From the NCBI GenBank assembly GCA_015059375.1, contig SVAN01000003.1, positions 27,211-91,210 on the forward strand: 64,000 nt of DNA. The letters are read 5' to 3'. The stretch comes from Bacillota bacterium (GTDB lineage Bacteria; Bacillota_I; Bacilli_A; RF39; UBA660). Shown one piece after another: positions 11,257 through 63,302 of this stretch. The notes under the pieces are model-generated. The model had not been told where the DNA came from, did not search any database, and saw nothing but the letters and a program-made list of their open reading frames with translations. How positions within the stretch are numbered: the first letter of the stretch is position 1; each line of letters starts with the position of its first letter. The position numbers were made by a program, and so were the translations under genes.

Positions 11257-11282
11257 TTAAAAGAAAGAGAAGAATAAAGTTT

Positions 11283-12161: not shown

Positions 12162-12182
12162 TAAAAAATGAAAGGATAAATC

Positions 12183-13088: not shown

Positions 13089-13144
13089 CAAAATTAAATT
13101 GGATAAGATATAATATTTTTGATAAATTTAAAGGGAGTATTTGT

Positions 13145-14341
13145 ATGCAAAAAGTTGTAATAATTGGTGGTGGCGCATCAGGAATGATAGCAGCGATTAA
13201 AGCTTCAGAATTAAATGAAGTGATTTTAATCGAAGCAAATGATAAATGTGGTAAAAAACTTTTATTAACTGGCAATGGTAAATGTAATTATTGGAATGAT
13301 AATATTTGTTTAGACAATTATTTTACTGATGATAAAGCTAAATTAAAAAATATATTAAATTATAAAGATGAAGTTTTAGATTTCTTATACAAATTGGGCT
13401 TATATCCCAAAATTAAAAATGGTTATTATTATCCGTATTCTGCACAAGCTTCAAGTGTAAGAGAAATACTCGCACTAGAACTTGAAAGAAGAAATGTAAA
13501 AGTTTTATATAATAGTAAAGTTTTAAATATTAAGAAAATGGATCATAAATTTTTAATAAAATTAGATGGAGATACAATTGAAGCAGATAAGATAATTATT
13601 GCGACAGGTTCGAAGGCTTTCCCCAAAACCGGTAGTGAAGGAGCGGGGTATGCATTTACTAAAGGATTAGGCCATAGTATTAATCCAGTGTTACCTGCTC
13701 TTGTTCAGTTAAAAGCTGATGAGTTTTATTTGAAAGAATGGAATGGAGTAAGGCAAGATGCTGAATTAACTTTATATGTGGATAATAAAATAATGGCTTG
13801 TGAAGCAGGAGAACTACAAATGACCCAAGATGGTATCAGTGGTATTTGTACTTTTAATATTAGTTCAATTGCTTCGCGAGCTTTATATGAAAATAAAAGT
13901 GTAGAGGTAAAAATCAATTTTTCGCCATTTATCGATGAATCATTTTATGAATTTTTTGATAAGAGAGCTACATTAATACCTAATCAAAATATTGGTCAGC
14001 TTTTGGAAAGTATTTTAAATTATAAACTAATTAACGTTATTTTCAAAAAATCTAATATTTCAAAAAATGCATATTGGAAAAGCTTAACGGAAAATGAAAA
14101 AAGAATATTATGCTCTAACGTTGATGATTTTCGAATAAAGATAATAGATACTAATTCAGTTGATAAAGGGCAAGTATGTACTGGCGGAGTTCCTTTAGCT
14201 GAAGTGGATAATAATTTGCATTCAAATATTTGTACTGGTTTATATTTAGTAGGAGAAATCCTCGACGTTGATGGTAAATGTGGAGGCTTTAATCTAGCTT
14301 TTGCTTTTATTTCTGGATATTTGGCAGGAAAGGTAGTTTAA
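13145..14341 (+). CDS. BaiN/YhiN (HI0933-like) family FAD-dependent flavoprotein
   Basis: 398 aa. VVIIGGGASGM dinucleotide fold, K.LLTGNGKCN and a C-terminal GGV.L.EVD....S.....LY..GE.LDVDG.CGG.NL pattern. Confidence 0.75.
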   Translation: MQKVVIIGGGASGMIAAIKASELNEVILIEANDKCGKKLLLTGNGKCNYWNDNICLDNYFTDDKAKLKNILNYKDEVLDFLYKLGLYPKIKNGYYYPYSAQASSVREILALELERRNVKVLYNSKVLNIKKMDHKFLIKLDGDTIEADKIIIATGSKAFPKTGSEGAGYAFTKGLGHSINPVLPALVQLKADEFYLKEWNGVRQDAELTLYVDNKIMACEAGELQMTQDGISGICTFNISSIASRALYENKSVEVKINFSPFIDESFYEFFDKRATLIPNQNIGQLLESILNYKLINVIFKKSNISKNAYWKSLTENEKRILCSNVDDFRIKIIDTNSVDKGQVCTGGVPLAEVDNNLHSNICTGLYLVGEILDVDGKCGGFNLAFAFISGYLAGKVV

Positions 14342-14342
14342 A

Positions 14343-15932: not shown

Positions 15933-15975
15933 AACATAAAAAAACTTCGGAATTTAATATAACCGAAGTTTTTTG

Positions 15976-18177
15976 TTATTTGTAATGAATTTCCTTAACT
16001 GGTGTACATTTAGTTACAAATTTTGCTACGCCAGTTCTTTGATAGCCATCTAATGTTGCTGCTGAACTATATAAATATTCAGCGTTTGACCAGATTGGAC
16101 TTGTTGAAGTAGTTACTGTTTTTGTACAAGCATTATTTGTCATTGTATAACCTTCAGGACAAGTGTTACCAGTGTATTCAGATGGAATTGTTACATAACA
16201 TTTACCATCTTTTAATGTTGCGTTAGCGTCTTCACAATAATATGTATCACTACTATAATAAGTTTTGAAACATTGTAAGCTTTCTTGTGAACCTGATGCA
16301 TTATAACCTTCAGGACAAGAATATGTTTTTGGTGTAGTAGCAGTATTTGCAACTTCTTTCTTATAACAGTTAGTTCCGTTATTAGTATAACCATCAGGGC
16401 AAGTAGAATTTGAATTACTAATTACATTAGTTGTTTTATAACAAAAATTTGAATTGCCTTGACGAATATATCCATAAGGACAATAACTATCACTAGAATA
16501 AATCATATTTGTTTTCATATAACAAGTATTGCCAGATCTAGTATAACCAGTAGGACAATAGCTATTAGTTGTAGTATTTAAACTTGTTTTCATGTAGCAA
16601 GTGTTACCGGATTTAGTATAACCAGTAGGACAAGTAGTAGAACTTGATGTTGTTACATTAGTTTTCATATAACAAGTATTACCAGACTTAGTATATCCAC
16701 TTGGACAAGTAGAACTAGAAGTAGTATCTTTAGTTGCATTCGTATAAACATGACATTTATTACCGTTCAATGTTCCTTGTGAGCAATGATAATATGCAGT
16801 TCTGCTATAAATGGCGTATGTATAAGAAGTAACTCCCATGATTGTAACAGAACCTGTTTGTTTTTTCATTGTAAGTTCATATGTATATTCATTTTCTTTT
16901 TCTTGAGTTTCATATATTGTATCTGGATTTCCCCATTCAGTATATAGTTTTACTGGAGATACAGTTTTTAAGCATTGAGTATTAGCTCCGCTGCCAGTTT
17001 TTGTATATCCGTTAGGGCAAGAATAAGTTGTAGTAGTGTTAGTAATCAAATCAGCATATTTATAGCAATAATTACCAGATTTAGTATACCCAGCAGGACA
17101 AGAAGAAGTAGTTTCTGTAGTTTGGTCAGTAAATTTATAACAACTTCCAAAGCTTTCATGATATCCCGAAGGACAAGAAGATTTATTTTCGGTAATTAAA
17201 TCAGCATATTTATAACAAGCATTATTTTTAGCAGTATACCCAGTAGGACAAGATGAATTTCCTACAGAAATGATATCTGCATATGCATAGCAAGTATTAC
17301 CAACTTTAGTATATCCAATAGGGCAACTTGAACTCAAAGAAATAATTTTATCAGCATAAGAATAGCAATAACCATTAATTAATGTTCCTTCGCTACAATA
17401 AGAATAACTTTCTCCGCCAGTTATTATTGGATCGGTGTATCTTTTGTAAGATACACCAGCATTTACACGTGCATCGGAAATAATAACTTTTTCTTCAGAA
17501 TAGTTAGGTATTGCTTCAATAGTTTCTGTTTTTTCAGAAATACAAGAACCATTTACATATATACCGGATTCACAACGAACATTTCTTTTTACATATTCAT
17601 ACTCGTAAGTTGTATTACATGTTGTTTCAATTTGGGTAAAAGTACAAACTGGTCCAATACAATTTACTTTATCATTATTATTTCCATTTTCATCTTCTGA
17701 AGGTGTAACTTCTAAATCAACCTTATCTTTATTTTCATCAATAATAACGTTACCGTTTTCATCGTCAACAATAGTATTTGTTTCGATTTTTTCAACAATA
17801 TTATCTTTTTTATCACCACATACCAAATTAGTTTTAACTTTATATTCAGTTGCGTTGATTTTAGTAATTGAAACATAACTTAATGTTTCATCACAAGCAG
17901 TTTTTCCATAAAATATCGGATTACTTAATTCTAATTCGTATACTTCATCTAGTGAAATAAGTGTAGTATCTCCGATTTCTTCTGGTAATTCATTAGCGAA
18001 ATATTCCTTGGCATTTTCATGTACTGTTTCTAAATTTGTTTTGAATTCTGCATTATAATCAGCAGTATTAGAACCTTTATTTACTACCCATGCAATAATA
18101 AAAATTATAACAAATAGGGCAATAATACCAAGCAGAATATTTAAAATTTTTCCATTTTTATTATTTTTTGTATACAT
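15976..18177 (-). CDS. Membrane-anchored extracytoplasmic protein with about 16 cysteine-pair repeats (CPxGYTxxGNxCY)
   Basis: 733 aa with an N-terminal TM anchor (ILNILLGIIALFVIIFIIAWVV). Two blocks of about 25-aa repeats each contain two Cys 10-15 residues apart, for example SSCPTGYTAKNNACYKYADLI and TTCPTGYTKSGNTCYMKTSL. A Cys-free spacer (aa ~403-463) separates the blocks. Confidence 0.7.
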   Translation of the reverse strand: MYTKNNKNGKILNILLGIIALFVIIFIIAWVVNKGSNTADYNAEFKTNLETVHENAKEYFANELPEEIGDTTLISLDEVYELELSNPIFYGKTACDETLSYVSITKINATEYKVKTNLVCGDKKDNIVEKIETNTIVDDENGNVIIDENKDKVDLEVTPSEDENGNNNDKVNCIGPVCTFTQIETTCNTTYEYEYVKRNVRCESGIYVNGSCISEKTETIEAIPNYSEEKVIISDARVNAGVSYKRYTDPIITGGESYSYCSEGTLINGYCYSYADKIISLSSSCPIGYTKVGNTCYAYADIISVGNSSCPTGYTAKNNACYKYADLITENKSSCPSGYHESFGSCYKFTDQTTETTSSCPAGYTKSGNYCYKYADLITNTTTTYSCPNGYTKTGSGANTQCLKTVSPVKLYTEWGNPDTIYETQEKENEYTYELTMKKQTGSVTIMGVTSYTYAIYSRTAYYHCSQGTLNGNKCHVYTNATKDTTSSSTCPSGYTKSGNTCYMKTNVTTSSSTTCPTGYTKSGNTCYMKTSLNTTTNSYCPTGYTRSGNTCYMKTNMIYSSDSYCPYGYIRQGNSNFCYKTTNVISNSNSTCPDGYTNNGTNCYKKEVANTATTPKTYSCPEGYNASGSQESLQCFKTYYSSDTYYCEDANATLKDGKCYVTIPSEYTGNTCPEGYTMTNNACTKTVTTSTSPIWSNAEYLYSSAATLDGYQRTGVAKFVTKCTPVKEIHYK
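16123..17577 (-). repeat. Coding tandem-repeat region (about 75-nt imperfect units) encoding the CPxGY cysteine-pair modules
   Basis: Three consecutive units at about 16510-16735 are roughly 80% identical at DNA level by eye (gttttcatataacaagtattgccagatctagtataaccagtaggacaa...). The remaining units are recognisable mainly at protein level. Confidence 0.7.
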
Positions 18178-18199
18178 AACTTTTTCCCCCTAAAACAAT

Positions 18200-19444
18200 T
18201 TATTTAGTTTTGCTTTCATCTTTTGCAAATTCAGTTAACATATCAGCTCTAAATGTGTAGAAACCATTTTTTTCATTACCTATATGTAAGTAAGCTTCGA
18301 GTTCTTCAACACAGGTAAATCCATAGTAACCATCAACTCTAACTCCGTTTCCGTATACAGAAGTTCCTAAACCAGACGTTAATTCTAATAATCTTTTTGC
18401 ATTTTGATTATATACACCAAGTAAAGTATAGTAAGTTGAAATTGGTGAATTTGGAGTAATAGAGTAGGCAACTGCTTTTCTAGCTAATAAGTCATTAAAG
18501 ATTTTAGCAAAATAAACATCGTTTTCATTATTAGCTTTGATGCCCTTAACAAGACGATCAGCAACAGCATAAATATCATAACCTTTTTCTGTTTTGCATT
18601 CTTTAAATTCGTCAATCGATATTTTGTTATCTGTAGCACACATGATGATGTCAGTTAAATCGTGGTCGCTTAGGAAGATATCGCTATCTAAATCTTTTTG
18701 AATAATTGCATCACTTCCAAGCTCACTTACGATTTGTCCAGTTACTCTTGTACTTACATGAATTTCTTCGCGATCTTGGAAAACCGCTTTATTTTCTAAT
18801 CTGTCAAAATTAGCAAGACGAATAGCATACATAATATCTTCGATAGTAATACCTGAATCAGCTGGTAATTTACTTTGAATATCTTGAGCGTACGTTAATA
18901 AAGAATCATAATCATCAATATCTAATTTATCAATTGGTTTAGTTAAATCATCGTCGGTTTGTTCTAAGCCAGGTAAATCGTCAGTATTTTCATTTTTATT
19001 TGGTTCGCATGATTTTAAGGCTAAAACAAGTAAAGTGATTATAGCGGCAACTCCAAGGCCAGTACCAATCGCAATTAGAATTTTCTTGATTCTGTTCCAA
19101 AGTTCTTCTTTATCCTTTTTAGTCTTTTCTTTTTGTTCTTTTGGTGGAATAACTTTCTTTACTTTAACTAAAGATGTTTCTGGACGTGCCATAATTGAAA
19201 CTGGAACCTCAATTTGTTTTAAGTATTTATATAGTTCAGTAAATTGGGTAGCGTATCCATCAAGTTTTTCTTGTGGAATGTCTGTGTTATTTTCAAAATA
19301 TGCAGAATAATAACATATGGTTGAATGTAATCCTTCGATTTCTTCTCTTTGTTTATTTGTTAAATCTGTACGTTTTAAAGCGTTTTCAGCTTTTGTTTTA
19401 CAACTATTAACAAGCACTAGTATTTCTTCTAATTTCATAATCAA
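18200..19444 (-). CDS. Hypothetical bitopic membrane protein, first gene of operon with the Cys-repeat protein
   Basis: 414 aa. Helical N-domain, one TM (ILIAIGTGLGVAAIITLLVLAL) and an extracytoplasmic C-domain. GGGAGG RBS. A 22-nt gap separates it from the downstream gene. Confidence 0.55.
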   Translation of the reverse strand: MIMKLEEILVLVNSCKTKAENALKRTDLTNKQREEIEGLHSTICYYSAYFENNTDIPQEKLDGYATQFTELYKYLKQIEVPVSIMARPETSLVKVKKVIPPKEQKEKTKKDKEELWNRIKKILIAIGTGLGVAAIITLLVLALKSCEPNKNENTDDLPGLEQTDDDLTKPIDKLDIDDYDSLLTYAQDIQSKLPADSGITIEDIMYAIRLANFDRLENKAVFQDREEIHVSTRVTGQIVSELGSDAIIQKDLDSDIFLSDHDLTDIIMCATDNKISIDEFKECKTEKGYDIYAVADRLVKGIKANNENDVYFAKIFNDLLARKAVAYSITPNSPISTYYTLLGVYNQNAKRLLELTSGLGTSVYGNGVRVDGYYGFTCVEELEAYLHIGNEKNGFYTFRADMLTEFAKDESKTK

Positions 19445-19473
19445 AACCCTCCCTTTTTGACTTAATGGCGTTT

Positions 19474-19512
19474 ATCCTAACATAAAATACCTTGTTTGTC
19501 AACTGCTTGACA
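19474..19512 (-). promoter_or_regulatory. Promoter of the 19444-15976 operon with an inverted repeat overlapping the -35
   Basis: The minus strand reads TTGACA (complement of 19497-19502), 17-nt spacer, TAGGAT (complement of 19474-19479). The -35 is one arm of the palindrome TGTCAA-ctgc-TTGACA (19497-19512). Confidence 0.45.
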
Positions 19513-19575
19513 GTGATATAAAGGGATATGAGAATGTAAAAAATGTTCCAAAATAAAAATTTAAAAAAAATTCCA

Positions 19576-19630
19576 TGAAAAAAAGGAAATTAAGTAGGTA
19601 GTAGGTAATATATAGGATGAAAGGAGGTAA
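19576..19630 (+). repeat. About 50-nt leader-like element, copy A (second copy at 63254-63302)
   Basis: tgaaaaaaaggaaat...GTAGTAGGTAATATATAG...aggagg. The 18-nt core at 19598-19615 is identical to 63275-63292. Both copies end in a GGAGG RBS followed by an ATG. Confidence 0.6.
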
Positions 19631-19811
19631 ATGAAACCGGCATATTTAAAAGATGGAGTAATTACAAAAATCTTAACCCTGTTGTAAAGACTATTTAAAT
19701 GAATTTCTAAGTTAACGTTAGGGCTGGATAAAGACTATGCTGTCTATTCTAAGGTTTGTTATGGCAAATTGTTTCTGGTTGTTATATAATTTATTTGGGT
19801 GGTAATGAATA

Positions 19812-20366
19812 ATGTATAAATATATTAAAGGACAAATAACGGAACTTGGGCCTAATTATGTTGTGCTTGAGTGTAATAATATAGGATATTTAATCTATGT
19901 GGCTAATCCATTTAGCTATGAAGTAGGAAAAGAATATAAAATTTATCTTTATAATAATGTTAAAGAAGATGAAAATTCTTTATATGGCTTTAAAAGTGAA
20001 GAAGAATTAAATTTGTTTTTGAAATTAATAAATGTAAAAGGTTTAGGACCTAAGATGGCTAATACCTTTTTTGCGATGGGAAGTGTTAATGGAATTGTTG
20101 ACGCAATTAATCGTGAAAACATTTTATATTTAACTAAATTTCCAAAAATAGGAGAGAAAATCGCTAAACAAATGATTCTCGATTTAAAAGGAAAAGTTAC
20201 TTGTGAAGCGGTAGTTGAAGAAGAAAATTCTACGGAGGATTTAGTAGCTGTTTTAGAAAGTTTAGGATATAAAACTCTTGAGATTAAGAAAATACTTAAG
20301 GATATAGATAATACACTTCCAATCGAATCGCAAGTTAAAGAGGCTTTAAAATTATTGCTAAAATAA
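19812..20366 (+). CDS. ruvA: Holliday junction DNA helicase RuvA
   Basis: 184 aa. MY.YIKG.I and the helix-hairpin-helix region L..V.G.GPK.A. Confidence 0.9.
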   Translation: MYKYIKGQITELGPNYVVLECNNIGYLIYVANPFSYEVGKEYKIYLYNNVKEDENSLYGFKSEEELNLFLKLINVKGLGPKMANTFFAMGSVNGIVDAINRENILYLTKFPKIGEKIAKQMILDLKGKVTCEAVVEEENSTEDLVAVLESLGYKTLEIKKILKDIDNTLPIESQVKEALKLLLK

Positions 20367-41801: not shown

Positions 41802-44800
41802 ATGAAAAAAATATTTTCAAAACAAGTGCAAATTATTTTATTTATAATAATGTTATTTGCATTTTCACCTAATGTTTTTGCACAAAGTTTTGATGGTATA
41901 ATGTATAATTTAGATGATTCGGCCCAATTATCTAAATTTAGTGATGGAAATCTAATTCTTTATACCGAAGAAACTGTTAATCTTGTATTTGATTCGTCGC
42001 AATCAGTGTACGAGGTTACTTCATGTGAAATACTTGATAATTTTCCTGCTACAGCCACATTTAATGATGGGGTATGCACAATTAAAACTAATCATTATGG
42101 AAGGTTTGAATTGCTAGTTAATTATGCAAGTGAATGGTCGAATTACAATTTTGTAATTGGGGGCTATTCGGTTTCCGACGATTTGTTCGTTGACATTGAA
42201 TCAGCATATTTTTATAATCGTGATTTTACACATTATGAATATTATCGATTTAATAGTGATGAAAAATTAAGTAAAGCCTTTAATGTTTATCGGAATTGTT
42301 ATACAACTGTGGACGGCTATCATTGTGATGTGAATTATTCATTCCCTTATGGGCCAAGTAAAAGCACTTCTTTTAGTGGTGCGTTAACTGGTTTAAATGT
42401 TATGGTGCCTTCGAATATGTATGTTGCTGATCGGTTTTACAATGCATTTGAAGATCAAGAACTGTTAATTACTGATGAAAGCGTTGTTAAATATGAAGAC
42501 GGTGCATTAATTGCTCTTAAAGAAGGTAATACAACAATTTATGTAATTGATAAGAAAACTAATAAATTTTATTTTACTCAAGTAAAGGTTGAAAATCAAA
42601 ATATTATTGGGGCATATGAACGATTAGAATTTAATACTGCATATTTTAATGAAAGAATTGAATTAGTTCCAACCAGTATCGAAGTAAATGCTAATGATTA
42701 TTACACTTCGTCATCCGCTGTGCTTGAAGACTTTGTTGTTAAACATCTTTTTGGTGAAGCGTATGTTGGTAAAGATTATAATAATTTAAATGTTTGGTAT
42801 AACACTCCTGATTGGAATAATCCCAATATTATAAATGTTCATGTATCATTTTTACCTAATGATAGTGAAGAATATATTGAACATGTATTTGAGAATATAA
42901 CAATTAGTTATTTTGGAGTATATTTTTCTAATAATATTCAATATGGTACATCTCAAACATTTTATAATTTTGTGCAAGTATATGGTGATGAAGAAGTTAC
43001 ATATACATATGATGAAAACTACATATCAATTGAAAATGGGATAATAACTCCGATTAAGCATGGATGCTTTAATATGAGCGTGACAGCGGGAAATAATACC
43101 ACCTCTAAAGAAGTTTGTGTATTTTTTTCTCACGAAGAGCAAAGAGAATTAAGAAGTGCTATTAATTTAATTCCAACATATGAGTTTGAAAATTCTAAAG
43201 ATGATTTTAGCAATAACTTAGAATACTTAGAAAAGTTAGTTAATGCTAAATATATGGAAGACATCCCTGAAAAGTATCATGATTATATTGAACTAAAAAC
43301 AATTTGTGTTAATCCCAAGTTATGTGCTACTGCTATTGATGGCGATTTACTTAATCCCGATTATTTTTATAAAAGCATAAGATATACAAATTCTAATGAA
43401 TCTTTAAATAGTGTACCTAATGTTATTAGTAATATTAAAGATGTCTATTTAGTAGGTTTTGATGATTTTATTAAAATAAATAATGCTGCTAAAGGGAATG
43501 AAGAAGCTTATTATGAAAAAATTATTGATGTGGTAAACTTAGAAGAACTTTTAAAAGACACACCAATCACAGCATCAGTAGTTAATAAAAAACAATATGG
43601 AATAGATAATCGTATTTATGGAAATTTAACATTTGTATTAAATTTATCAGTGGATTCAAAAATTATTTATTCTAAAGAAATAGCTATAGTAACAAATCCG
43701 TTTATTCATCTTTCTATAGACATAGAACAAAATGATATAAAAAGAGCAGAATATATAAATGAATATTTAAAAGAATTACTTGAAGTTGAAAACGTTAATT
43801 GTGTAATTAGTGATACTTTTGTTTCGGCATTTATAAATGATGAATATACAATAAAATTTGGTTATACTCAAGATCCAATTATTCCGGTAACTTCATTGTC
43901 ATATTTATATACGCATTATGAAATGAATGTAGGTGATCAAGTTCAAGTTGAGCTTGCATACTATCCTGCAAATGCTAATCAAATGCCTAACTTAATATAT
44001 ACTTCATTAAATGAGGATGTAGTTACAGTTGATGAAAATGGCGTTGTAACTGCATTAAAGAATGGTTATGGCGAAATCCTGATTCGTAGTGATATCGGAT
44101 ACATTTATTCAATTGTTATATTAGTTGGAACTAATATGCAGGCATTTCTTGATAGTTTAGTAGATGATATTAATACTCATGTTGAAGTTAACTACGGGGA
44201 ATATAGGTCAAGTGGTATGTATGCAATTGAAAATCAAATTCGTCCTCAAACTATGGATTATAATAGTGGCTGGTGGAAGTATTCCGGAAGCATTAATGAA
44301 GTAGGTAATGAACTATATTATACGAAGTGGCATTGGGGAAATGGCCCAGGAGAAGAATATCAAAAGTTTGAATCAAAACCGGTTAAAATCACCTATGTTT
44401 TAAAAGGTATTGATATTGAATATGAACATTACTATTTAGATCTTTTAGAAAAAACAAAAGTTAATTTAACTTATAGTGAAGGTGATACTTCAAAATTATA
44501 TTACCGAGTTGATAAACCTGGAATAGTATCGTTTAATTTAAATGGAGATTTAATGGGGCTTGCTCCAGGCATTACGCGAGTTGATATTTATGGCAAAAAA
44601 GAGACATATTTTAATTATTTTTATGTTTACGTTGATGAAAGTAACTTTATAAATACTAAACTTCGTGAACTTGAACAAAAAGGCGTTGTAATTGATGCTA
44701 GCTATATTGAATGGAGTCCAAATTCTGGAGTTAAATATAAAATCGATGATTATTTAGACTTCTATATGTTTAATCCGATTGTTGATTGTGATACTGAAAG

Positions 44801-46655
44801 CCAAATATGTTCTTATGAACTTGAATTAAATGGTCAAACTTATACTGCCTCAATCCCATATACAATAGAGGGAATGCTTATCAATGGCGACACGCATGTA
44901 TATTTAAATTCAGGTCAAACTCATCAATTAAATATTACAAATTATACCCTAAATGATAATAAGACTATAAATTATCGCTCGTTTGACGAAAGTATTTGTA
45001 CAGTCACAAGTGCAGGCTTAATTACTGCCAATAAAAAAGGAATATGTCCGGTTTTAGCTTCAAACGTAAATAATTCCGCAATTGCAGTCAACGTTGTTGT
45101 TGATGCTGAGCAAATCCGCACTGATTTAGCAAGTGAATATAACAAAATTCCAGATGAAGTTAATGTAGATGTTGTTCGCTATTCTGATGAAATTGATAGT
45201 GGAGATGATACTGAAGCATATATAATTTATTTGAATGAATATTTTAGACAATTCTTTGGAGGCAGTAAAGATTACTATTTCATGTTTGGCCTTGGTGCTT
45301 TAAGTGAAAGTGATGATAATATTTTAGAAGTAACATTTGATAAAAACTACAGCTTTGAATATAATGGAAATTATTGGTCAACAACATTTACGCCTAATGG
45401 TAGTAAAAAGGTTAAATTTAATTTCTTAGAAGAACCAATGGTTGCTGACCAAAATCTTGATACGATAAAAGAGTCGCTTGTTCACGATTATGACTTAACG
45501 ATGTCAGAGGCATTAAGATATCGAGTATCACAAAAAGGAATTGGCGGAATTGTTGATTATTGTAGTGAATTTAAAAATTCTATTCATAGATTTGCTGGTT
45601 ATGATTATATATTTGATGCCAGAGCAGGAAGTGCATTTGACGGAACAACTGCTGTAGAAGGTGGATTTGTTGTTGTTACTTACAATGGTGCTCCAGTTTA
45701 TTCTACTCAAGCATTCTTTACTGCAAGATATTATTTACCGAGTGATGCGCCTCAAAATCAAGCTGCATTTATTGAATATTTAAAAAATGTTATTAAAGAA
45801 GAGTTTTTAAAACTAATCGATCCAACTGATAACCAATATGGGGTTGGAATGACTATGGAACCGAGAACTGTTCTTTATGCTGGTACACCAAATGTTGAAC
45901 CAAATGTCGAAGTAGAGTATCTTAAAAATTCTGGAAGTGGTGAGTTATATTTAGTAACAATAAATGATTTGAGTTTTGGTCTAGAAGTAGCCCGTGATAA
46001 AAACATTGATTATCCAGATATGGCAACAAATATTACTCTAAATACTGATAAAATGACTTTAGACCTTGGGCAAAGTGCTAAGGTGACTTATACACTAGAA
46101 CCAATTGGCGCTGCAAAAGCCAAAGTATATTGGTTTACATCAAATCCAAATGTTGCAAGAGTTGACAATGGTCAAATATTTGCTGTAGGAGCTGGTGAGG
46201 CTATAATAACAGCTTCAGTTGATGGTGTATCCGCAACAGTTCTAGTAACAGTTAATAACAAAAAACTTGATCAAATAATAACTAGTCAAGGGTATAAATT
46301 ATCAGGTACTTTTGTTCATGGATTTGGTTTAGATGAAACAATTGCTAGCCTGCAAAATAAAATCGGAAATGATATTACAATTGAAAGTAATAATAATAAA
46401 ATCGTAGGAACTGGTACTAAAATTACATATAAAGGGCAACAATTTGTAGCAGTTATATATGGCGATTTATCTGGAGATGGTGTAATCAATTCTGCTGACC
46501 TTTTAAAAATGCGTCAACATTTATTAGGAACAGGTGTATTGGAAGGTGCTTACAAACAAGCAGCATCGGTAGTCAATGGCCAAACAATTAATTCTGCTGA
46601 TTTGCTAAAATTAAGACAACATTTGCTTGGTACCAATATAATTGTTCAAGGATAG
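41802..46655 (+). CDS. Giant secreted protein with Big_2 Ig-like domains and a C-terminal dockerin-like module
   Basis: 1617 aa. Signal peptide (...SPNVFA-QS). At least three Big_2-like segments, for example VTVDENGVVTALKNGYGEILI and NPNVARVDNGQIFAVGAGEAIITASVDGVSATVLVTV. The C-terminus GDLSGDGVINSADLLKMRQHLLG...VVNGQTINSADLLKLRQHLLG is a duplicated dockerin-type EF-hand repeat with a degenerate second loop. Confidence 0.8.
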   Translation: MKKIFSKQVQIILFIIMLFAFSPNVFAQSFDGIMYNLDDSAQLSKFSDGNLILYTEETVNLVFDSSQSVYEVTSCEILDNFPATATFNDGVCTIKTNHYGRFELLVNYASEWSNYNFVIGGYSVSDDLFVDIESAYFYNRDFTHYEYYRFNSDEKLSKAFNVYRNCYTTVDGYHCDVNYSFPYGPSKSTSFSGALTGLNVMVPSNMYVADRFYNAFEDQELLITDESVVKYEDGALIALKEGNTTIYVIDKKTNKFYFTQVKVENQNIIGAYERLEFNTAYFNERIELVPTSIEVNANDYYTSSSAVLEDFVVKHLFGEAYVGKDYNNLNVWYNTPDWNNPNIINVHVSFLPNDSEEYIEHVFENITISYFGVYFSNNIQYGTSQTFYNFVQVYGDEEVTYTYDENYISIENGIITPIKHGCFNMSVTAGNNTTSKEVCVFFSHEEQRELRSAINLIPTYEFENSKDDFSNNLEYLEKLVNAKYMEDIPEKYHDYIELKTICVNPKLCATAIDGDLLNPDYFYKSIRYTNSNESLNSVPNVISNIKDVYLVGFDDFIKINNAAKGNEEAYYEKIIDVVNLEELLKDTPITASVVNKKQYGIDNRIYGNLTFVLNLSVDSKIIYSKEIAIVTNPFIHLSIDIEQNDIKRAEYINEYLKELLEVENVNCVISDTFVSAFINDEYTIKFGYTQDPIIPVTSLSYLYTHYEMNVGDQVQVELAYYPANANQMPNLIYTSLNEDVVTVDENGVVTALKNGYGEILIRSDIGYIYSIVILVGTNMQAFLDSLVDDINTHVEVNYGEYRSSGMYAIENQIRPQTMDYNSGWWKYSGSINEVGNELYYTKWHWGNGPGEEYQKFESKPVKITYVLKGIDIEYEHYYLDLLEKTKVNLTYSEGDTSKLYYRVDKPGIVSFNLNGDLMGLAPGITRVDIYGKKETYFNYFYVYVDESNFINTKLRELEQKGVVIDASYIEWSPNSGVKYKIDDYLDFYMFNPIVDCDTESQICSYELELNGQTYTASIPYTIEGMLINGDTHVYLNSGQTHQLNITNYTLNDNKTINYRSFDESICTVTSAGLITANKKGICPVLASNVNNSAIAVNVVVDAEQIRTDLASEYNKIPDEVNVDVVRYSDEIDSGDDTEAYIIYLNEYFRQFFGGSKDYYFMFGLGALSESDDNILEVTFDKNYSFEYNGNYWSTTFTPNGSKKVKFNFLEEPMVADQNLDTIKESLVHDYDLTMSEALRYRVSQKGIGGIVDYCSEFKNSIHRFAGYDYIFDARAGSAFDGTTAVEGGFVVVTYNGAPVYSTQAFFTARYYLPSDAPQNQAAFIEYLKNVIKEEFLKLIDPTDNQYGVGMTMEPRTVLYAGTPNVEPNVEVEYLKNSGSGELYLVTINDLSFGLEVARDKNIDYPDMATNITLNTDKMTLDLGQSAKVTYTLEPIGAAKAKVYWFTSNPNVARVDNGQIFAVGAGEAIITASVDGVSATVLVTVNNKKLDQIITSQGYKLSGTFVHGFGLDETIASLQNKIGNDITIESNNNKIVGTGTKITYKGQQFVAVIYGDLSGDGVINSADLLKMRQHLLGTGVLEGAYKQAASVVNGQTINSADLLKLRQHLLGTNIIVQG

Positions 46656-46662
46656 GAGAAAA

Positions 46663-47451
46663 ATGAAAAGATTATTAAGTTTATTATTAGGTTTATTATG
46701 CATGATGCCTGTTTGCGTTTTTGCAGCAGGCACTGCTAAGATTAGTGCTCCAAGTAGCGTTGAAAATGGCTCGAATGTTTCAATGAGCGTTACAGTTTCT
46801 GGCGTTGCAGCATGGAATTTAACGTTATCTGGTTCTGGAGCAACGACGGGGTGTACTAGTAAAGTGGCTGATGTTACAGCGGATGCAAGTAACACGACTA
46901 AAACTTTTAGCGTAACATGTAAAGCGACAAAAGTTGGTACAATTTATTTTCAAGTAATTGGGGATATTACGAGTGCTGATGGAACAAATAGTCCTGTTTC
47001 GCTTACGAAAAATGTAACTGTAGTTACGCCTAGAGAAAGAGATAAGGAATCGCGATTAGAATCTTTAAAAATAGATGGCTATGAAATTGACTTTGATAAA
47101 GATAAAACTTCATATGCAATCGAAGTAGAATATGATGTTAATTCTGTTAAAGTTGATGCCGATTCTTTGAGTAGTAAAGCCAAGGTCGAAATTGATAATC
47201 CAGAATATTTAATTTTTGGTGAAAATACCATTTTAATTAAAGTAACTAGTGAAAGTGGTGATATCAAAAATTATACAATTAAGGTTACTAAAAATAAGCC
47301 GGTATTAGAATGCGAAGAGTGTCCAGTACCAGAACCGGTTAAATGTGAAAAACCAACTAATACTGGTTATATTGTTACAATCAGTATTGAAGCAGTAGCG
47401 CTTATTAGTTTACTAGGATATCTAATTTATGATAAGAAAATAAAAAAATAA
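46663..47451 (+). CDS. Secreted, C-terminally membrane-anchored protein: about 100-aa beta-sandwich (cohesin-like?) + cadherin-like beta-sandwich domain
   Basis: Start moved to MKRLLSLLLGLL (signal peptide ...VFA-AG). The middle segment SRLESLKIDGYEIDFDKDKTSYAIEV....V.V.A......A.V.I........GEN.I.I.V.SE.G....YTI.V matches the cadherin-like beta-sandwich pattern common in Clostridia. C-terminal TM IVTISIEAVALISLLGYLIY. Confidence 0.65.
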   Translation: MKRLLSLLLGLLCMMPVCVFAAGTAKISAPSSVENGSNVSMSVTVSGVAAWNLTLSGSGATTGCTSKVADVTADASNTTKTFSVTCKATKVGTIYFQVIGDITSADGTNSPVSLTKNVTVVTPRERDKESRLESLKIDGYEIDFDKDKTSYAIEVEYDVNSVKVDADSLSSKAKVEIDNPEYLIFGENTILIKVTSESGDIKNYTIKVTKNKPVLECEECPVPEPVKCEKPTNTGYIVTISIEAVALISLLGYLIYDKKIKK

Positions 47452-54704: not shown

Positions 54705-54737
54705 AAGGAAATGAGATTGTCATTTCCTTATTATTTT
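54705..54737 (+). terminator. Rho-independent terminator after the kinase gene
   Basis: 10-bp perfect stem aaggaaatga / tcatttcctt followed by a T-rich tail. It lies inside the ORF-track N-terminal extension of the next gene. Confidence 0.6.
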
Positions 54738-54770
54738 GGTAAAATTTTATATAGAGTAGGAAGGTTACTT

Positions 54771-57254
54771 ATGAAAGATAAAAATCGTTTATATTTAATT
54801 ATCGGGATTGTTGTTGCCGTTTTGTTTTTAGCAGGAACATTTACTTATGCATATATTAATCGAGCTAACTCAAGTGGTAATACAAATTTATTATCAGAAA
54901 TTATTGATTCTAATAGCACTATTAGTTATACAGGTGAAACAACAGGGAATATGAGCATTACTGTTGATTTAAATAAACTTCAAAGTGATACGGCAAGTAA
55001 TGATTATGCTAGTTTTATAGAAGGCAATGAAGCATCGGCCTCGATGACTTTGGCATATGAGCCAACTTTCTTTAAATATGGTTTAACTTGTGACTATAAA
55101 ATTAGTTATGTTCCATCAAAAACATATGTGCCTACATCAGCGTCTTTAAATGCGGGGTTAAAAGAATTTGTTTTAATCGGTACAAATGGCAGTGATTCTT
55201 TTGAGGCAGATTTAGGTAATGTATCTTCAGAAACTATTGTATATGAATCAAAATTAAGTCCTAAAGTGATAAATAATCCGTATGAAGAAACATGGCGATT
55301 TTCTCTGCGATTTTATAATTTAGATGTTAATCAAGAGGATGTTGCTGGTAAAGAAATGGCTGGGAGCGTAAAAATTATACCTGGCAATTGTCGCGGTAGC
55401 AATGAGATATCCAATATAGTGCTTGCTCAAGCTGATGGGAATGACAAAGCGTCAAGTCAAGATGATGGCGGGATATACCGTGTAGTAAATCAAAATGGTT
55501 ATCGTTATCAAGGAAAAAATCCTAATAATTATGTGGAATTTAACAATGGTGAATTATGGCGAATCATTGGTGCGTTTGAAGGAAGTACAATCGGCCTTGA
55601 AGAGGGTGAATATTACACCAAAATTATTAAAGACGAGTCAATTGGTGATTACTATTGGGATGAAAATGATGAAAATAATTGGGTAAATGCCAGTTTAAAT
55701 AATTATTTAAACGGTACCTATTTAAGAGAATTGGATTCGTTTTCAAAAGGCATGATAACCTCAGCAACGTGGTATTTGGGCGGCGTTCCAGCAGACTCAT
55801 ATGAAATATATAATACATTACAATTTTATGAGGCCGAAAGAGGATCAACTGGGGGAGGCGCTTCACCTACAACATTAAATTATAGAAATAGAATTGGCTT
55901 AATCTATCCAAGCGATTATGGATATGCGATGTATGATGGAAGCGCTAATACTACGTGTACGACTGATTCATTAGTTTACGATTATCATATTTCGAGGCTA
56001 AAGTGTGCAAATTACGATTGGTTATTTTATCAAGATTATTATTGGACAATAACGTCAGTTTCTGTTTCTGATCATTATGAGTTCCGGGTGAACGAAGCTG
56101 GCTACGTCATGTGGGAAAATGGTTTTAACTATGCGTATGGTGTGCGTCCTACAGTTTACTTAAAATCTAATATAAATGTAGAATCTGGCTTAGGTACTAA
56201 AGAAGAGCCTTACAAGCTTGAATTAATTATACTAGATGATTTCACCTTAGCTGTTACAACAGATTGGGAAAGCGAAGGATTATCATTAGAAAAAGGCTAT
56301 AAAGAGGAATTATTGTGTAACGATAATAGTGTAAACTATAATTTTAAATATAGAAGTATTGATATACCTATGGGGGCTGGAAAAATAATTTGTGAGTTAA
56401 TTTATGCAAAAGATACTGCAGAATATCCTAATCTAAGAGAAGAAGTACAAAGACTAAATTCCACTGATAACGATGGATATCGTTATCAAGGAAAGCAGCC
56501 AAATAACTGGGTATGGTTTAATGATGAACTATGGCGAATAATTGGAAGTGTACCTGTATGTACAAACGCCACGATAGCAAGTGGGGCAACAAGCGGAACT
56601 TGTAACAAAAGAACTAACTTAGTTAAAATAATTCGAAATGAATCAATAGGCGGACTAGCTTATCATAGTTCAGAGACCAACACTGTATGGGGAAGCGGAA
56701 ATACCTTATATACCCTTTTAAATGAAAAATATCATGGAAAACAAAATGCCACAGGAGCAAGCCCATGTTATGGATATAGTACATATTTGGGAACATGTGA
56801 TTACCGGATAAACGGGATATCAAAAAATAAAAATGATTATTATAATAAAATGATTGAAAGCGTACATATGAATGTCGGAACAGTAAGGAGTACATCAACA
56901 TATATAGATGTAGCATATGATTTAGAAACAAACTTAGTTACTAAACAAACAGCAATAGGACTTATGAACGTAAGCGATTATGGATATGCCGCATCGGGAA
57001 TAACATATAGTAGTACAGATTTATCAAGTTTAAGTAGTTCAGTTGCTAATAACTGGTTATATGGAAATGGAAATGAATGGACAATGACGCCAAGAAGTTC
57101 TGATCGCGTTATGCGCGTGGGCAATCACGGCAATCTTGGCAGCTATATTGCAAACTACGGCCGCGCAGTCAGGCCAATCTTGTATCTAGACTCTGGTGTA
57201 TATATTCGGGGAGGAAATGGAACGATAACTAATCCATATATCCTAGGGCTGTAA
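54771..57254 (+). CDS. Large surface protein: SipW-type signal/TasA-like N-domain + two copies of the VRP...G.GT...PY.L module
   Basis: Start moved to MKDKNRLYLIIGIVVAVLFLAGTFTYAYI. Module 1 ends YGVRPTVYLKSNINVESGLGTKEEPYKLEL. Module 2 ends GRAVRPILYLDSGVYIRGGNGTITNPYILGL. Confidence 0.75.
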   Translation: MKDKNRLYLIIGIVVAVLFLAGTFTYAYINRANSSGNTNLLSEIIDSNSTISYTGETTGNMSITVDLNKLQSDTASNDYASFIEGNEASASMTLAYEPTFFKYGLTCDYKISYVPSKTYVPTSASLNAGLKEFVLIGTNGSDSFEADLGNVSSETIVYESKLSPKVINNPYEETWRFSLRFYNLDVNQEDVAGKEMAGSVKIIPGNCRGSNEISNIVLAQADGNDKASSQDDGGIYRVVNQNGYRYQGKNPNNYVEFNNGELWRIIGAFEGSTIGLEEGEYYTKIIKDESIGDYYWDENDENNWVNASLNNYLNGTYLRELDSFSKGMITSATWYLGGVPADSYEIYNTLQFYEAERGSTGGGASPTTLNYRNRIGLIYPSDYGYAMYDGSANTTCTTDSLVYDYHISRLKCANYDWLFYQDYYWTITSVSVSDHYEFRVNEAGYVMWENGFNYAYGVRPTVYLKSNINVESGLGTKEEPYKLELIILDDFTLAVTTDWESEGLSLEKGYKEELLCNDNSVNYNFKYRSIDIPMGAGKIICELIYAKDTAEYPNLREEVQRLNSTDNDGYRYQGKQPNNWVWFNDELWRIIGSVPVCTNATIASGATSGTCNKRTNLVKIIRNESIGGLAYHSSETNTVWGSGNTLYTLLNEKYHGKQNATGASPCYGYSTYLGTCDYRINGISKNKNDYYNKMIESVHMNVGTVRSTSTYIDVAYDLETNLVTKQTAIGLMNVSDYGYAASGITYSSTDLSSLSSSVANNWLYGNGNEWTMTPRSSDRVMRVGNHGNLGSYIANYGRAVRPILYLDSGVYIRGGNGTITNPYILGL

Positions 57255-57292
57255 AATAAAAAGTGCCGCTGGTGCGTTTTTGTACCCGGCAC
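56433..57292 (+). repeat. Direct repeat copy A (about 860 bp, period 1262 bp) covering the C-terminal module, stop codon and terminator hairpin
   Basis: Hand alignment with 57695-58554. Identity is about 95% over the first ~650 bp and about 98% over the last ~125 bp. A 76-nt patch (57094-57169) carries 21 mismatches. Confidence 0.85.
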
Positions 57293-57337
57293 GGCCGAAA
57301 ATGATAGAAAAGAAAAAAAGAAGTTAAGGAGGTATAA

Positions 57338-58516
57338 ATGAAAAACGGAAAGATACCGAGATGTTTATTTGGAATATTAATACTAAGCATGATAATTGTA
57401 TTTTTGTATCCCAAAAATGCGAGAAAATATCTTAATTATGAAGGTACTATGCTTGCTATAACTCTTGATGGCGAATATATCGAAACGTTTCCTGATTCGA
57501 GTGGTAAATATAATGCTACTATTGAGTGCACAAACGGAGCAGTAGGAAAATACATACCAATTAAAATATATAATAATGGTGCTGAAACAGGTGAATATGA
57601 AATGAAGTTAAGAATTCAAAATCTTGATTCTAAAAAAGTGACGTGTGACGTCAACTTTATATCAATTACCGCTGAGAATCAAGATGATTATTTACTAATA
57701 AAGGAAGTACAAAGACTAAATCCCACTAATAACGATGGATATCGTTATCAAGGAAAGCAGCCAAAAAACTGGGTATGGTTTAATGATGAACTATGGCGAA
57801 TAATTGGAAGTGTACCTGTATGTACAAGTGCTACGATAGCAAGTGGAGCAACAAGCGGAACTTGTAACAAAAGAACTAACTTAGTTAAAATAATTCGAAA
57901 TGAATCATTAGGCGGACTAGCTTATCATAGTTCAAGTACCAATACTGTATGGGGAAGCGGAAATACCTTATATACCCTTTTAAATGAAAAATATCATGGA
58001 AAAGAAAATGCCACAGGAGCAAGCCCATGTTACGGATATCAAACTATGTTAGGAACATGTGATTACCGGATAAACGGGATATCAAAAAATGAAAATGATT
58101 ATTATAATAAAATGATTGAAAACGTATATATGAATGTCGGAACAGTAAGTAGTACATCAACATATATAGATGTAGCATATGATTTAGAAACAAACTTAGT
58201 AACAGAACCAACCACAATAGGACTTATGAACGTAAGCGATTATGGATATGCCGCATCGGGAATAACATATAGTAGTACAGATTTATCAAGTTTAAGTAGT
58301 TCAGTTGTTAATAACTGGTTATATGGAAATGGAAATGAATGGACAATGACGCCAATAAGTTCTAGTGACGTTATGAACGTGCACTATTACGGCTATGTTA
58401 GCAGCTACAGTGCGGACTACGGCAACGCAGGCAGGCCAATCTTGTATCTAGACTCTGGTGTATATATTCGGGGAGGAACTGGAACGATAACTAATCCATA
58501 TATCCTAGGGCTGTAA
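57338..58516 (+). CDS. Surface protein paralog (N-terminal anchor + small Cys-containing beta domain + one VRP...GGTGTITNPYILGL module)
   Basis: 392 aa. Strong AAGGAGG RBS. The C-terminal ~270 aa are nearly identical to module 2 of the upstream gene. Confidence 0.75.
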   Translation: MKNGKIPRCLFGILILSMIIVFLYPKNARKYLNYEGTMLAITLDGEYIETFPDSSGKYNATIECTNGAVGKYIPIKIYNNGAETGEYEMKLRIQNLDSKKVTCDVNFISITAENQDDYLLIKEVQRLNPTNNDGYRYQGKQPKNWVWFNDELWRIIGSVPVCTSATIASGATSGTCNKRTNLVKIIRNESLGGLAYHSSSTNTVWGSGNTLYTLLNEKYHGKENATGASPCYGYQTMLGTCDYRINGISKNENDYYNKMIENVYMNVGTVSSTSTYIDVAYDLETNLVTEPTTIGLMNVSDYGYAASGITYSSTDLSSLSSSVVNNWLYGNGNEWTMTPISSSDVMNVHYYGYVSSYSADYGNAGRPILYLDSGVYIRGGTGTITNPYILGL

Positions 58517-58554
58517 AATAAAAAGTGCCGCTGGTGCGTTTTTGCACCCGGCAC
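57695..58554 (+). repeat. Direct repeat copy B
   Basis: See copy A. The variable patch is at 58356-58431. Confidence 0.85.
58525..58554. terminator. GC-rich bidirectional terminator hairpin shared by the 57338 gene and def (a duplicate is at 57263-57292)
   Basis: gtgccg-ct-ggtgc gttttt gcacc-cggcac, flanked by an A-run upstream and a T-run downstream. Confidence 0.6.
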
Positions 58555-58561
58555 TCGATTT

Positions 58562-59178: not shown

Positions 59179-59370
59179 CTAGTTATTAAAACCTTGATTG
59201 TTATTGCCAAAGCCCCATGCCCCGATAATTATTACAAGTAGTATGAAAAGTACTATCCAAATAGCAGCACCAATTCCTGAACCAGCAGTATAACCGGCAT
59301 ATGTGCCGCCACAACAAGGAGCTCCGTAACCGCCACCACCATAGTAGCCGTTATTCCCATAATAATACAT
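59179..59370 (-). CDS. YjcZ-like Gly/Tyr-rich tiny membrane (sporulation) protein
   Basis: 63 aa. MYYYGNNGYYGGGGYG...IWIVLFILLVIIIG resembles the YjcZ family, which has a GGYGGGF..IVVLFILLIIVG core. Terminator hairpin at 59164-59180. Confidence 0.6.
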   Translation of the reverse strand: MYYYGNNGYYGGGGYGAPCCGGTYAGYTAGSGIGAAIWIVLFILLVIIIGAWGFGNNNQGFNN

Positions 59371-60780: not shown

Positions 60781-60813
60781 TTTTGTGATAAAGTATAGTT
60801 CGAGGTGGGCGAG

Positions 60814-61125
60814 ATGAAAAAAAGTGGAGAAAGATTAAAAGCTGCTAGAGAATTTTTAGGTTTAACACAAGAACAAGTTGCATCAGCCTTACATATGACT
60901 AGAAACATGATTGTAAATATCGAAAACAATAATAGAACTATAAAATCAGATGAACTTTATAGATTTTCTAAATTATATGGAATCAGTATGGAAGAAATTG
61001 TTTCGGAAGAAAAAGAGGTAAATATGAATATACCAGCTTTTGCAAGAGGTTTTGAATCATTATCGGATAAAGATCAACAAGAGATTTTAAATTTGATAAA
61101 ATTTAAAATTAACTATAAAGGTTAG
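60814..61125 (+). CDS. XRE-family helix-turn-helix transcriptional regulator
   Basis: Start moved to MKKSGERLKAAREFLGLTQEQVA..L...R..I..IE.N.R, the classic Cro/C1 HTH. Confidence 0.85.
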   Translation: MKKSGERLKAAREFLGLTQEQVASALHMTRNMIVNIENNNRTIKSDELYRFSKLYGISMEEIVSEEKEVNMNIPAFARGFESLSDKDQQEILNLIKFKINYKG

Positions 61126-61127
61126 TA

Positions 61128-62480
61128 GTGTATTTTAATAATAGATCAAGAATAGCAGCTGAAAAAATTTTACAAACAATAAAAGAAGAAAAAGGAAAAA
61201 TAACTTATCCAATCGATCCTTTTGAAATATTAAGAAAGAATAATGTAGTGATTACATTTTCTGATTTTGATAAACTGGAAGGACTATTGTTATTTGATAA
61301 ACAGAAAGAATCTATCGTTTCAATAAACTTAAATAGACCTATAACTCGACAACGATTTACTGCAGCTCATGAATTAGGCCATATAATGCTTCATACAGAA
61401 ATTAATGGAGATAACTTTTTGTGCCCAATATTAGGGGCAAAGAATCATATTGAACGCGAAGCGGATGATTTTGCTTCCTATTTATTGATGCCAAATGATG
61501 AATTAAATAAAATTATAGATATGTATCAAAACCAAAATGGATTTGTTGACCTTGACGCCTGTTTATTAATAGCAGAGTATTTTGGTGTTAGTTTTGAATC
61601 ATGTGTAAAAACCATTAGATTTCGATTAAATAGATTAGTGCATCAGCTGAATAACACCGAATTAAATAAAATAATAAGAAAATATAAACCACAATCTAAA
61701 AGAAAGAAACTGTTTGAAAATACAAATGACTTAAATTTACTAAGAAATTCTATTAATTATAGTTATTTTTCTATTCCTAATGTTAATGAAATTGTAGGAA
61801 TTAGATTTATGCAAAATCTGGTTTATCATGATAATAGATTAGAAAATATTGACTTATCAATTGAAAAAGTTAACGAAATATATGCAGATTTCCGTATTAA
61901 TGGTAGCGGAAGCAAGTTTTGTACGGAAGAAAATCAAAATATTATTGAAGTGTTAGGAAATATTGAAATGAATAAATATTGTCTAGAAACCTCTGATGAT
62001 ATTACTATTTTCAAAATTAAAGATTTAAATAAATTATTATATAAATTCGTTCCTTACCCTGAATATACTGGAACTTTTAGGACTACTGACAATTTAATTT
62101 TGCGAGGTAAAATACAACCAATTAGTATATCGGAATTATTTAATAAGATAGAAGAATTAAATGAACTGGTTAATAAGTTAGTTGTAAATATTGATGAATA
62201 TGATATTTCTGATTATATTAGAGAAGTAGCCAATATTCATTATAAATTAACTGTATTGCATCCGTTTAATGATGGAAATGGGAGAATATCTCGTGCTTTT
62301 ATGAATTGGTTATTACGATTAAAAGGATTATGTCCAATTTATATCGATTCTGAAAACAGGGACGTATATTTGGACTCGTTGAGCAAAATAGATTCTGGTG
62401 ATGATACTACTGAATTACAAATTATAATAATTAAGTCAATTATTAAAACAATGGCTGAATTGCATAATTCTTGGAGGTAA
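61128..62480 (+). CDS. ImmA/IrrE (COG2856) metallopeptidase fused to a Fic (AMPylase) domain
   Basis: 450 aa. The N-terminal half has FTAAHELGHIMLH (HEXXH) plus EREADDFASYLLMP. The C-terminal half has the canonical Fic motif HPFNDGNGRISR, preceded by a candidate inhibitory-helix motif (DNRLEN). Starts 3 nt after the XRE gene. Confidence 0.8.
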   Translation: MYFNNRSRIAAEKILQTIKEEKGKITYPIDPFEILRKNNVVITFSDFDKLEGLLLFDKQKESIVSINLNRPITRQRFTAAHELGHIMLHTEINGDNFLCPILGAKNHIEREADDFASYLLMPNDELNKIIDMYQNQNGFVDLDACLLIAEYFGVSFESCVKTIRFRLNRLVHQLNNTELNKIIRKYKPQSKRKKLFENTNDLNLLRNSINYSYFSIPNVNEIVGIRFMQNLVYHDNRLENIDLSIEKVNEIYADFRINGSGSKFCTEENQNIIEVLGNIEMNKYCLETSDDITIFKIKDLNKLLYKFVPYPEYTGTFRTTDNLILRGKIQPISISELFNKIEELNELVNKLVVNIDEYDISDYIREVANIHYKLTVLHPFNDGNGRISRAFMNWLLRLKGLCPIYIDSENRDVYLDSLSKIDSGDDTTELQIIIIKSIIKTMAELHNSWR

Positions 62481-63253: not shown

Positions 63254-63302
63254 TGAAAAAAGGAAATGGAGGGTGTAGTAGGTAATATATAGTATAGGAG
63301 GA
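63254..63302 (+). repeat. About 50-nt leader-like element, copy B (see 19576-19630)
   Basis: The core GTAGTAGGTAATATATAG at 63275-63292 is identical to 19598-19615, and the flanks are similar. Confidence 0.6.

Follow-up and report, generated by a model that had tools for sequence, protein, structure and literature searches.

Two adjacent genes of an uncultured goat-gut bacterium are closely similar over their 3′ portions except for one short patch near the C-terminus of each product, and the question raised by this locus is what produced the difference. The genes, open reading frame 1 (ORF1; 54711..57254, forward strand, 847 aa, MBE6155463.1, E7164_01750) and ORF2 (57338..58516, forward strand, 392 aa, MBE6155464.1, E7164_01755), are separated by an 83-nt spacer and lie within the window, a 64-kb stretch of a metagenome-assembled genome (MAG; GenBank entry 'Firmicutes bacterium', locus-tag prefix E7164). 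ORF1 has a hydrophobic anchor at its N-terminus and two lectin-type modules, the second at 56433-57254; ORF2 is modelled by AlphaFold2 with a transmembrane helix, a beta-sandwich and a C-terminal globular lectin-type module. A preliminary description, made from the letters of the window, had likened the patch to the variable repeat (VR) of a diversity-generating retroelement (DGR). We conclude that both patches are very probably DGR variable repeats. Each lies at the C-terminal end of a C-type-lectin module like DUF6273, and the two tandem genes encode surface proteins anchored in the membrane.

The direct repeats that contain the two patches (56433-57292 and 57695-58554, 860 nt) form a gap-free alignment with 59 differences, of which 21 fall inside the 76 nt between 57094 and 57169 (72% identity). 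The 661 nt before the patch have 36 differences and are 94.6% identical, and the 123 nt after it have 2 and are 98.4% identical, in agreement with the values of about 95% and 98% first given, and the clustering of mismatches in the patch is highly significant (Fisher p = 2e-9). Our recount also returned the same 21 mismatches, with 19 at codon positions 1 or 2, versus 21 of 37 in the coding flanks (p = 0.009). Five codons—cgc/aac twice, ggc/cac, gat/agt and cgc/gac—are altered at positions 1 and 2 with position 3 kept. Fourteen residues differ between the two patch translations, as had been described, although they are 14 of 29 rather than of 31.

The patches are also compositionally distinct. 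Their GC content is 0.54 (copy 1) and 0.49 (copy 2) versus 0.299 window-wide, close to the contrast of about 50% with about 30% reported previously, and at third codon positions it is 0.52 and 0.59 versus 0.19–0.21 in the 570 nt upstream. The A content is 0.23–0.27 (0.19–0.27 when a second tandem pair in the MAG, described below, is included) versus approximately 0.40 in the flanks. Copy 1 has A at 5 of the 21 sites, copy 2 at 8, and neither at 8, so the original statement that neither copy is the template of the other holds.

Five contigs from uncultured Bacilli—found through homologues of the window proteins and the reverse transcriptases (RTs) adjoining them, and designated L014, L016, L017, L019 and L020—carry a full DGR cassette that acts on the same segment of the same protein family. 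The order is: target, small ORFs, bAvd, RT, template repeat (TR), an ORF of approximately 90 aa, and a second target. The TR begins approximately 20–40 nt 3′ of the RT stop codon; its span opens with the Pro codon that follows E-W-T-x-T and closes with the Arg (or Arg-Pro) codons, which is the stretch that varies in the window. Differences between TR and VR fall at template adenines in 15 of 16 cases in L014, 11 of 11 and 15 of 15 in the two VRs of L016, 19 of 19 in L017, 14 of 19 in L019 and 12 of 12 in L020, a total of 86 of 92 counted differences. The L014 cassette lies at 11886-13400; its RT has the motifs IGNQSSQF and YMDD, and the neighbour of that RT matches the NCBIfam DGR Avd model with E = 1.5e-11, a match that lies under the model cut-off. 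L016 and L017 have an identical RT and different VRs, which fits continuing diversification in that lineage. By these sequence comparisons, the family to which the window proteins belong is a proven DGR target in sister genomes.

Some further properties of the sister contigs deserve mention. The two L014 targets are 100% identical over 290 nt including the VR (11109-11398 versus 14712-15001), yet both differ from the template at 16 sites, implying gene conversion between the targets after homing. The L016 VRs (7789-7878 and 11436-11525) align to their template with two gap openings, and the C-termini of the proteins called there are read outside the frame usual for the family, which could reflect frameshifting of the repeats or errors in assembly. 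Beginning some 600 nt after the second target of the L016 cassette, at 12159-19903, are eleven ORFs in tandem with matches to DUF1016/YhcG, of which several are short fragments, and L014 has one YhcG-like gene upstream of its cassette.

Homology to the TR and VR spans of the sister contigs gives the extent of the window repeats, from the Pro codon to the Arg codon: variable repeat 1 occupies 57090..57173 and variable repeat 2 occupies 58352..58435, both on the forward strand. All 21 mismatches fall within this TR-homologous span, of which 57094-57169 marks the first and last variable site in variable repeat 1. In ORF2 the patch corresponds to residues 339–365, immediately N-terminal of a near-invariant Arg-Pro.

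The sister templates were used as an outside predictor in place of a cognate template. When the 21 variable sites of the window patch are set to A, the resulting sequence (CCAAAAAGT...GACAGG) aligns to the TR regions of six sister cassettes with scores of 20–31, whereas the unaltered window VRs score 8–23 and the same sites set to C, G or T score 5–13. Among 500 controls in which 21 other sites were set to A, none reached the observed score with any of the six templates. In its core, AAC GTG AAC AAT AAC GGC AAT, the reconstruction is one base off the L023 template. Because the A-set reconstruction outscores the VRs, the C, G and T versions and all 500 controls, the sites that differ between the window copies are, as judged by alignment, adenine sites in real templates of the family. 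The indication of adenine-specific substitution in the window patches is therefore indirect, coming through sister TRs and not a cognate one; the predicted cognate template of the window pair would be a copy of approximately 84 nt close to CCAAAAAGTTCTAATAACGTTATGAACGTGAACAATAACGGCAATATTAGCAGCTAYAATGCAAACTACGGCAACGCAGACAGG.

The window genes share a second feature with the sister targets, a GC-rich hairpin just past the stop codon. After ORF1 it lies at 57263..57292 (forward strand), 8 nt past the stop and with no T tail (GTGCCGCTGGTGC-GTTTTT-GTACCCGGCAC); after ORF2 it lies at 58524..58555 (forward strand), 7 nt past the stop, is followed by a T-rich run, faces the convergent gene def and may also be a terminator. 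Hairpins of this kind in the family begin 5–12 nt past the stop codon, have energies of −16 to −23 kcal/mol and are 59–77% GC. They are present in all six cassette-linked targets examined (for example L014 11377-11406 and 14980-15009, and L020 3717-3747) and in three of four MAG paralogues—both window genes and one gene of the other pair—whereas elsewhere in the family, in the genes examined, there is no hairpin or a weak, AT-rich one. The association of hairpin and cassette is an observation, and a role in homing is only putative; the window hairpins sit past the stop codon, at a distance of approximately 90 nt from the VR, and have other loops, unlike the published DGR hairpins, which are 4–34 bp from the VR and have 4-nt GRNA loops (PMC3240598). 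Third-position GC of the patch is 0.70–0.93 in cassette-linked VRs, which have the GC-rich hairpin; 0.52–0.70 in this MAG, where it accompanies three of the four paralogues checked; 0.37–0.41 in a cassette-less pair on contig L015, which has none; and 0.11–0.33 in other family members, seemingly unlinked to any DGR and likewise without it.

The structure predicted for ORF2 agrees with the placement of the patch at the C-terminal end of a lectin-type module, as originally proposed. The AlphaFold2 model, built with 90 homologues, has a mean pLDDT (predicted local distance difference test) of 93, and the patch residues lie in confident beta-strands. Searched with Foldseek, it matches phage DUF6273 proteins at probability 1.0; the best solved structure is chain 9qa6, the IgA peptidase of Thomasclavelia ramosa, whose N-terminal domain is a DUF6273 (PMC12402451), and weaker matches include the C-terminal domain of Legionella Lcl, classical C-type lectins and DUF1566. 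DUF6273 is a lectin-like DGR target domain with its VR at the C-terminal end (PMC10743442, PMC11792537). In the Pfam search against DUF6273 (PF19789; gathering cut-off 23.5 bits) ORF2 has no match and ORF1 module 1 scores 21.8 bits, under the cut-off; weak matches occur in only 5 of 90 family members. Because the window modules score under the Pfam cut-off, we describe them, on the strength of the model, as resembling DUF6273 in fold and not as Pfam members. The family is a large one, with 6,678 cluster representatives at E ≤ 0.001 and 470 at E ≤ 1e-30, and some members have up to eight matched stretches.

A simpler account would dispense with a retroelement altogether: the patch would be a ligand-binding loop under strong diversifying selection, and the likeness of the flanks would be maintained by patchy gene conversion. 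It can point to the facts that variation in this loop is seen throughout the family, even in members lacking a DGR signature, that gene conversion among the paralogues is evident, and that RT and TR were not found in the MAG DNA read. It leaves unexplained, however, why a third-position GC of 0.52–0.70 and a depletion of A are limited to approximately 84 nt, why five codons are changed at positions 1 and 2 with position 3 kept, why the variable sites match the adenines of sister templates when none of 500 controls does so, and why a GC-rich hairpin is shared. Selection alone, which had been put forward as the alternative in the preliminary description, now appears very unlikely.

If the patches are DGR variable repeats, the sister cassettes suggest how they would have been written. 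The TR would be transcribed, and an Avd-assisted reverse transcriptase would copy it while misreading adenines, so that the cDNA would overwrite the stretch of approximately 84 nt from the Pro to the Arg codon. Template AAY codons would become NNY in the gene, and the adenine-free scaffold codons GTG, GGC, GCN and TAC would stay fixed. Once written, patch alleles would behave as stable cassettes, with the paralogues swapping surrounding sequence by gene conversion. Homing in the lineage of the window, and the location of its template, we infer; that template and enzyme lie elsewhere in the genome, or that they have been lost, are about equally probable.

Several observations weigh against a DGR acting on this locus, and one is that its machinery was not encountered. 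The position of the patch and its variable sites fit the sister cassettes, as expected of the VR first suggested, and no RT or TR was found for the MAG. Within the window, blastn (word size 7) revealed no third copy of the patch, and scans for a YxDD reverse-transcriptase-like ORF and for an AAC-dense, TR-like stretch were empty; the preliminary description too had reported neither RT nor TR in the window. Neither RT, Avd nor TR is present in the 64 kb of the window, in the 2.5 kb beyond it on L001 (the contig carrying the window locus), or in the 16.7 kb of L003 (the contig with the second pair), the RT being absent within about 5–10 kb of that pair. Among approximately 170 distinct listed RTs of the sister clade, none has a name or source indicating the MAG, 16 RT clusters that were checked contain no accession from it, and five RT matches traced to contigs (four of them JGI-sourced) all belong to other organisms. 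Furthermore, the cassette sits between the targets in sister genomes, whereas at both MAG loci the targets adjoin each other; the patches of the MAG number at least five and belong to three incompatible scaffolds; and each patch allele is the same in all of the assemblies where it occurs (L001, L002 and L012; L003–L005).

Pattern searches for a template were extended to collections of metagenome, genome and viral contigs. A template-only pattern, with A at the variable sites, has no matches there, and neither does a general pattern with N at codon positions 1 and 2, even though the latter matches the window, L001 and L002; because the VR pattern itself is absent from them, these collections are uninformative on the template. 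The patterns ended in 'GGCC' and may overrun the true template end, as seen in L014, by one to two bases. Viral contigs also lack matches to shorter template cores for scaffold A, that of the window pair, and scaffold B, that of the second pair, and a search for related loci gave none in viral contigs and four in genome contigs, none with an RT.

The second tandem pair of the MAG (E7164_03175 and E7164_03170; MBE6155738/9; L003 3999-5357 and 5513-6676) has patches (L003 5193-5273 and 6512-6592) that differ at four sites, each with A in one copy, and a third-position GC of 0.70. At about 12 third-codon positions the copies agree within each locus and the two loci differ. A single adenine-rich template for all four paralogues was considered and rejected, because independent randomisation would not give this within-locus agreement. 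A third gene, a multi-module one at L001 8385-10040 (window approximately 64866-66521, past the 3′ end), has an ORF1-like N-terminus and a Pfam DUF6273 match of 31.3 bits, above the cut-off; the contig end falls inside its second module. Its patch (L001 9687-9767; CADRSDYAFYVSGNFGGYVGRGSVSVGNTARP) is A-poor, has a third-position GC of 0.70 and represents a third scaffold unlike that of the window. As the three scaffolds are incompatible, one TR cannot serve all of the patches, and these additional patches speak against so simple a picture as the one originally drawn, in which both window copies are targets of a single remote template.

The L003 pair lies directly upstream of a Tad / type IV pilus-like cluster that continues to 16676 and encodes TadE, a ParA-like ATPase, T2SSE, two T2SSF and an N_methyl protein. 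This hints, by position, that the lectin proteins of the MAG may be pilus-associated.

The flanks of the four paralogues are mosaic: in blocks 300-360 and 480-540 copy 2 clusters with L3a, as copy 1 does with L3b, whereas the grouping in the patch follows the locus. Exact copy-1 or copy-2 patches also occur on backbones of the other locus in the database variants P0125, P0127 and P0128, and P0003 is a further variant in which backbone and exact patch come from different loci. These four could be either true gene-conversion recombinants or assembly chimeras on short contigs. The preliminary description had named patches that are fixed and explained by recombination as evidence against its proposal; the alleles are indeed identical in all assemblies and recur on other backbones, a result that speaks against ongoing hypervariation. 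No between-strain or within-population hypervariation is seen in the assemblies, which appear to represent one strain, since differences from L001 occur only at its contig end, and whose consensus contigs hide rare variants. The identity of alleles counts weakly against current DGR activity.

Such findings lend themselves to an explanation in which the patches are orphan or imported VRs, written by a DGR in an ancestor, another strain or a paralogue, spread by duplication and gene conversion, and left to decay slowly after loss of the cassette. The lack of a cassette at both MAG loci, the mosaic flanks around patches that group by locus, the exact window patches on foreign backbones and the uniformity of the alleles are all as it would have them. 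So is the third-position GC of the window patches (0.52–0.59), which is under that of cassette-linked VRs (0.70–0.93), and the cassette-less pair on L015, with lower values and no GC-rich hairpin, looks like a later stage of decay. The gradient in third-position GC is what decay after element loss would yield, with the MAG near the active end. Yet the values in the MAG are far over background and the hairpins are intact, so any loss would be recent; remote DGR targets are known (PMC8144416), and the DNA read covers a minor part of the genome; and the mosaic proteins are on contigs of 2.7–5.8 kb, where chimeras between 95%-identical repeats are possible. We regard orphan VRs as a serious possibility, while stopping somewhat short of favouring it.

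Mis-assembly of repeats from a metagenome could in principle have created the patch differences or the tandem layout itself. Contigs do break within these repeats, and five differences between L001 and the window all lie at most 104 nt from the contig end, two of them equal to the paralogue's base. But the two-gene layout with both patches is present on independent contigs from a JGI sample, ORF2 with its patch is also on an ENA contig, and the GenBank MAG has the same proteins; we consider an artefact of assembly extremely improbable.

A bolder reading of the several scaffolds is that one small-genome bacterium keeps at least five DGR-written lectin loops, built on three or more scaffolds and spread over several loci that lack a cassette in cis, and reassorts them between paralogues by gene conversion, or else that one remote RT works with several templates. 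We think this rather unlikely. Were it true, a library of loops together with shuffling would amount to two-tier diversification, with retroelement writing followed by cassette reassortment.

Other features of the locus include the equivalent loop of ORF1 module 1 (56064..56144, forward strand), which has a third-position GC of 0.48 versus 0.26 upstream. It is possibly a variable repeat that is older or has decayed, and no partner for this loop was found. The chromosomal neighbours of ORF1 and ORF2 are def, which is convergent to ORF2, and ftsW, with a 63-aa ORF on the minus strand (59179-59370) between those two that is Gly/Tyr-rich and has a hydrophobic tail. Farther along, at 60805-62480, are a helix-turn-helix protein and then a fused M78 (IrrE-type) peptidase and Fic domain protein. 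Upstream, at 41802-47451, a cadherin-like protein comes after one of 1617 aa in which Big_2, hyaluronate-lyase N-terminal and dockerin domains are present; these kinds of genes are also found upstream of the L016 DGR cassette. A likeness of the N-termini of ORF1, ORF2 and the ORF at 49306 to SipW-type signal peptides is not supported, and an NCBIfam scan of the three gave no match. An Rfam scan of the window likewise had no match. Two repeats are seen elsewhere in the window: 75-nt tandem units of 60–78% identity at 16363-17377, within a 733-aa ORF (15976-18177, minus strand), and an A/G-rich 47-nt repeat (81% identity) at 19579-19625 and 63256-63302, 43.7 kb apart, of which at least the 63256-63302 copy is directly upstream of an ORF start.

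In metagenome surveys, DGRs are picked up only where VR and RT adjoin (PMC8144416), and loci like the window pair are missed by them for that reason. A cassette-less target should nevertheless be recognisable by three marks: composition—an A-poor patch of high third-position GC in an AT-rich gene—together with the codon pattern between paralogues and the match to a sister template. The surface-lectin family described here is large in uncultured gut and rumen Bacilli, and many of its members may be diversified likewise; the diversification would possibly serve the binding of changing ligands on hosts, plant fibre or other microbes.

DGRs, their lectin-fold targets, DUF6273 as a target domain and remote targets (PMC8144416) are all established. 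What is mildly new is the chromosomal Bacilli family, in which a long and a short target are paired, and the presence in one genome of several scaffolds without any cassette in cis; both may still work like known DGRs, and the biology is established DGR biology. The closest relatives of the window pair are the sister cassettes (L014, L016/L017, L019, L020/L021, L022 and L023), whose targets belong to the same protein family (33–41% identity) and share the pairing of a long and a short target, the position of the patch, the post-stop hairpin and a scaffold logic of V-x-N-V-N-N-N-G-N...; they differ in having bAvd, RT, TR and the approximately 90-aa ORF between the targets, where the window has its 83-nt spacer. 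Cellular DGRs with remote targets, in Legionella, Treponema and cyanobacteria (cited in PMC8144416 and PMC7517822), likewise have targets far from RT and TR and several VRs per genome, although all of their VRs are on the scaffold of one TR, compared with at least three scaffolds in the MAG. In the prototype, the Mtd DGR of Bordetella phage BPP-1 (PMC3240598), a lectin-fold loop at the C-terminus is rewritten at adenines, as the window patches probably were. A GC-rich end of the VR and a GC-rich inverted repeat beyond it are candidate common features, the window hairpin being farther from the VR and different in its loops. DUF6273 targets of DGRs are known in phages, as the tentaclins of gut phages nd4 and nd12 and in the Faecalibacterium prophages Lelie, CP11, Roos and Pioen (PMC10743442, PMC11792537). 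These have in common with the window a lectin-like fold, a VR that forms beta-hairpins or loops at the C-terminal end and diversification of AAY codons, and two targets per element are common among them. The window genes differ from them in being chromosomal, near def and ftsW, in scoring under the Pfam cut-off with no adjoining cassette, and in encoding membrane-anchored cell proteins where the phage genes encode tail proteins.

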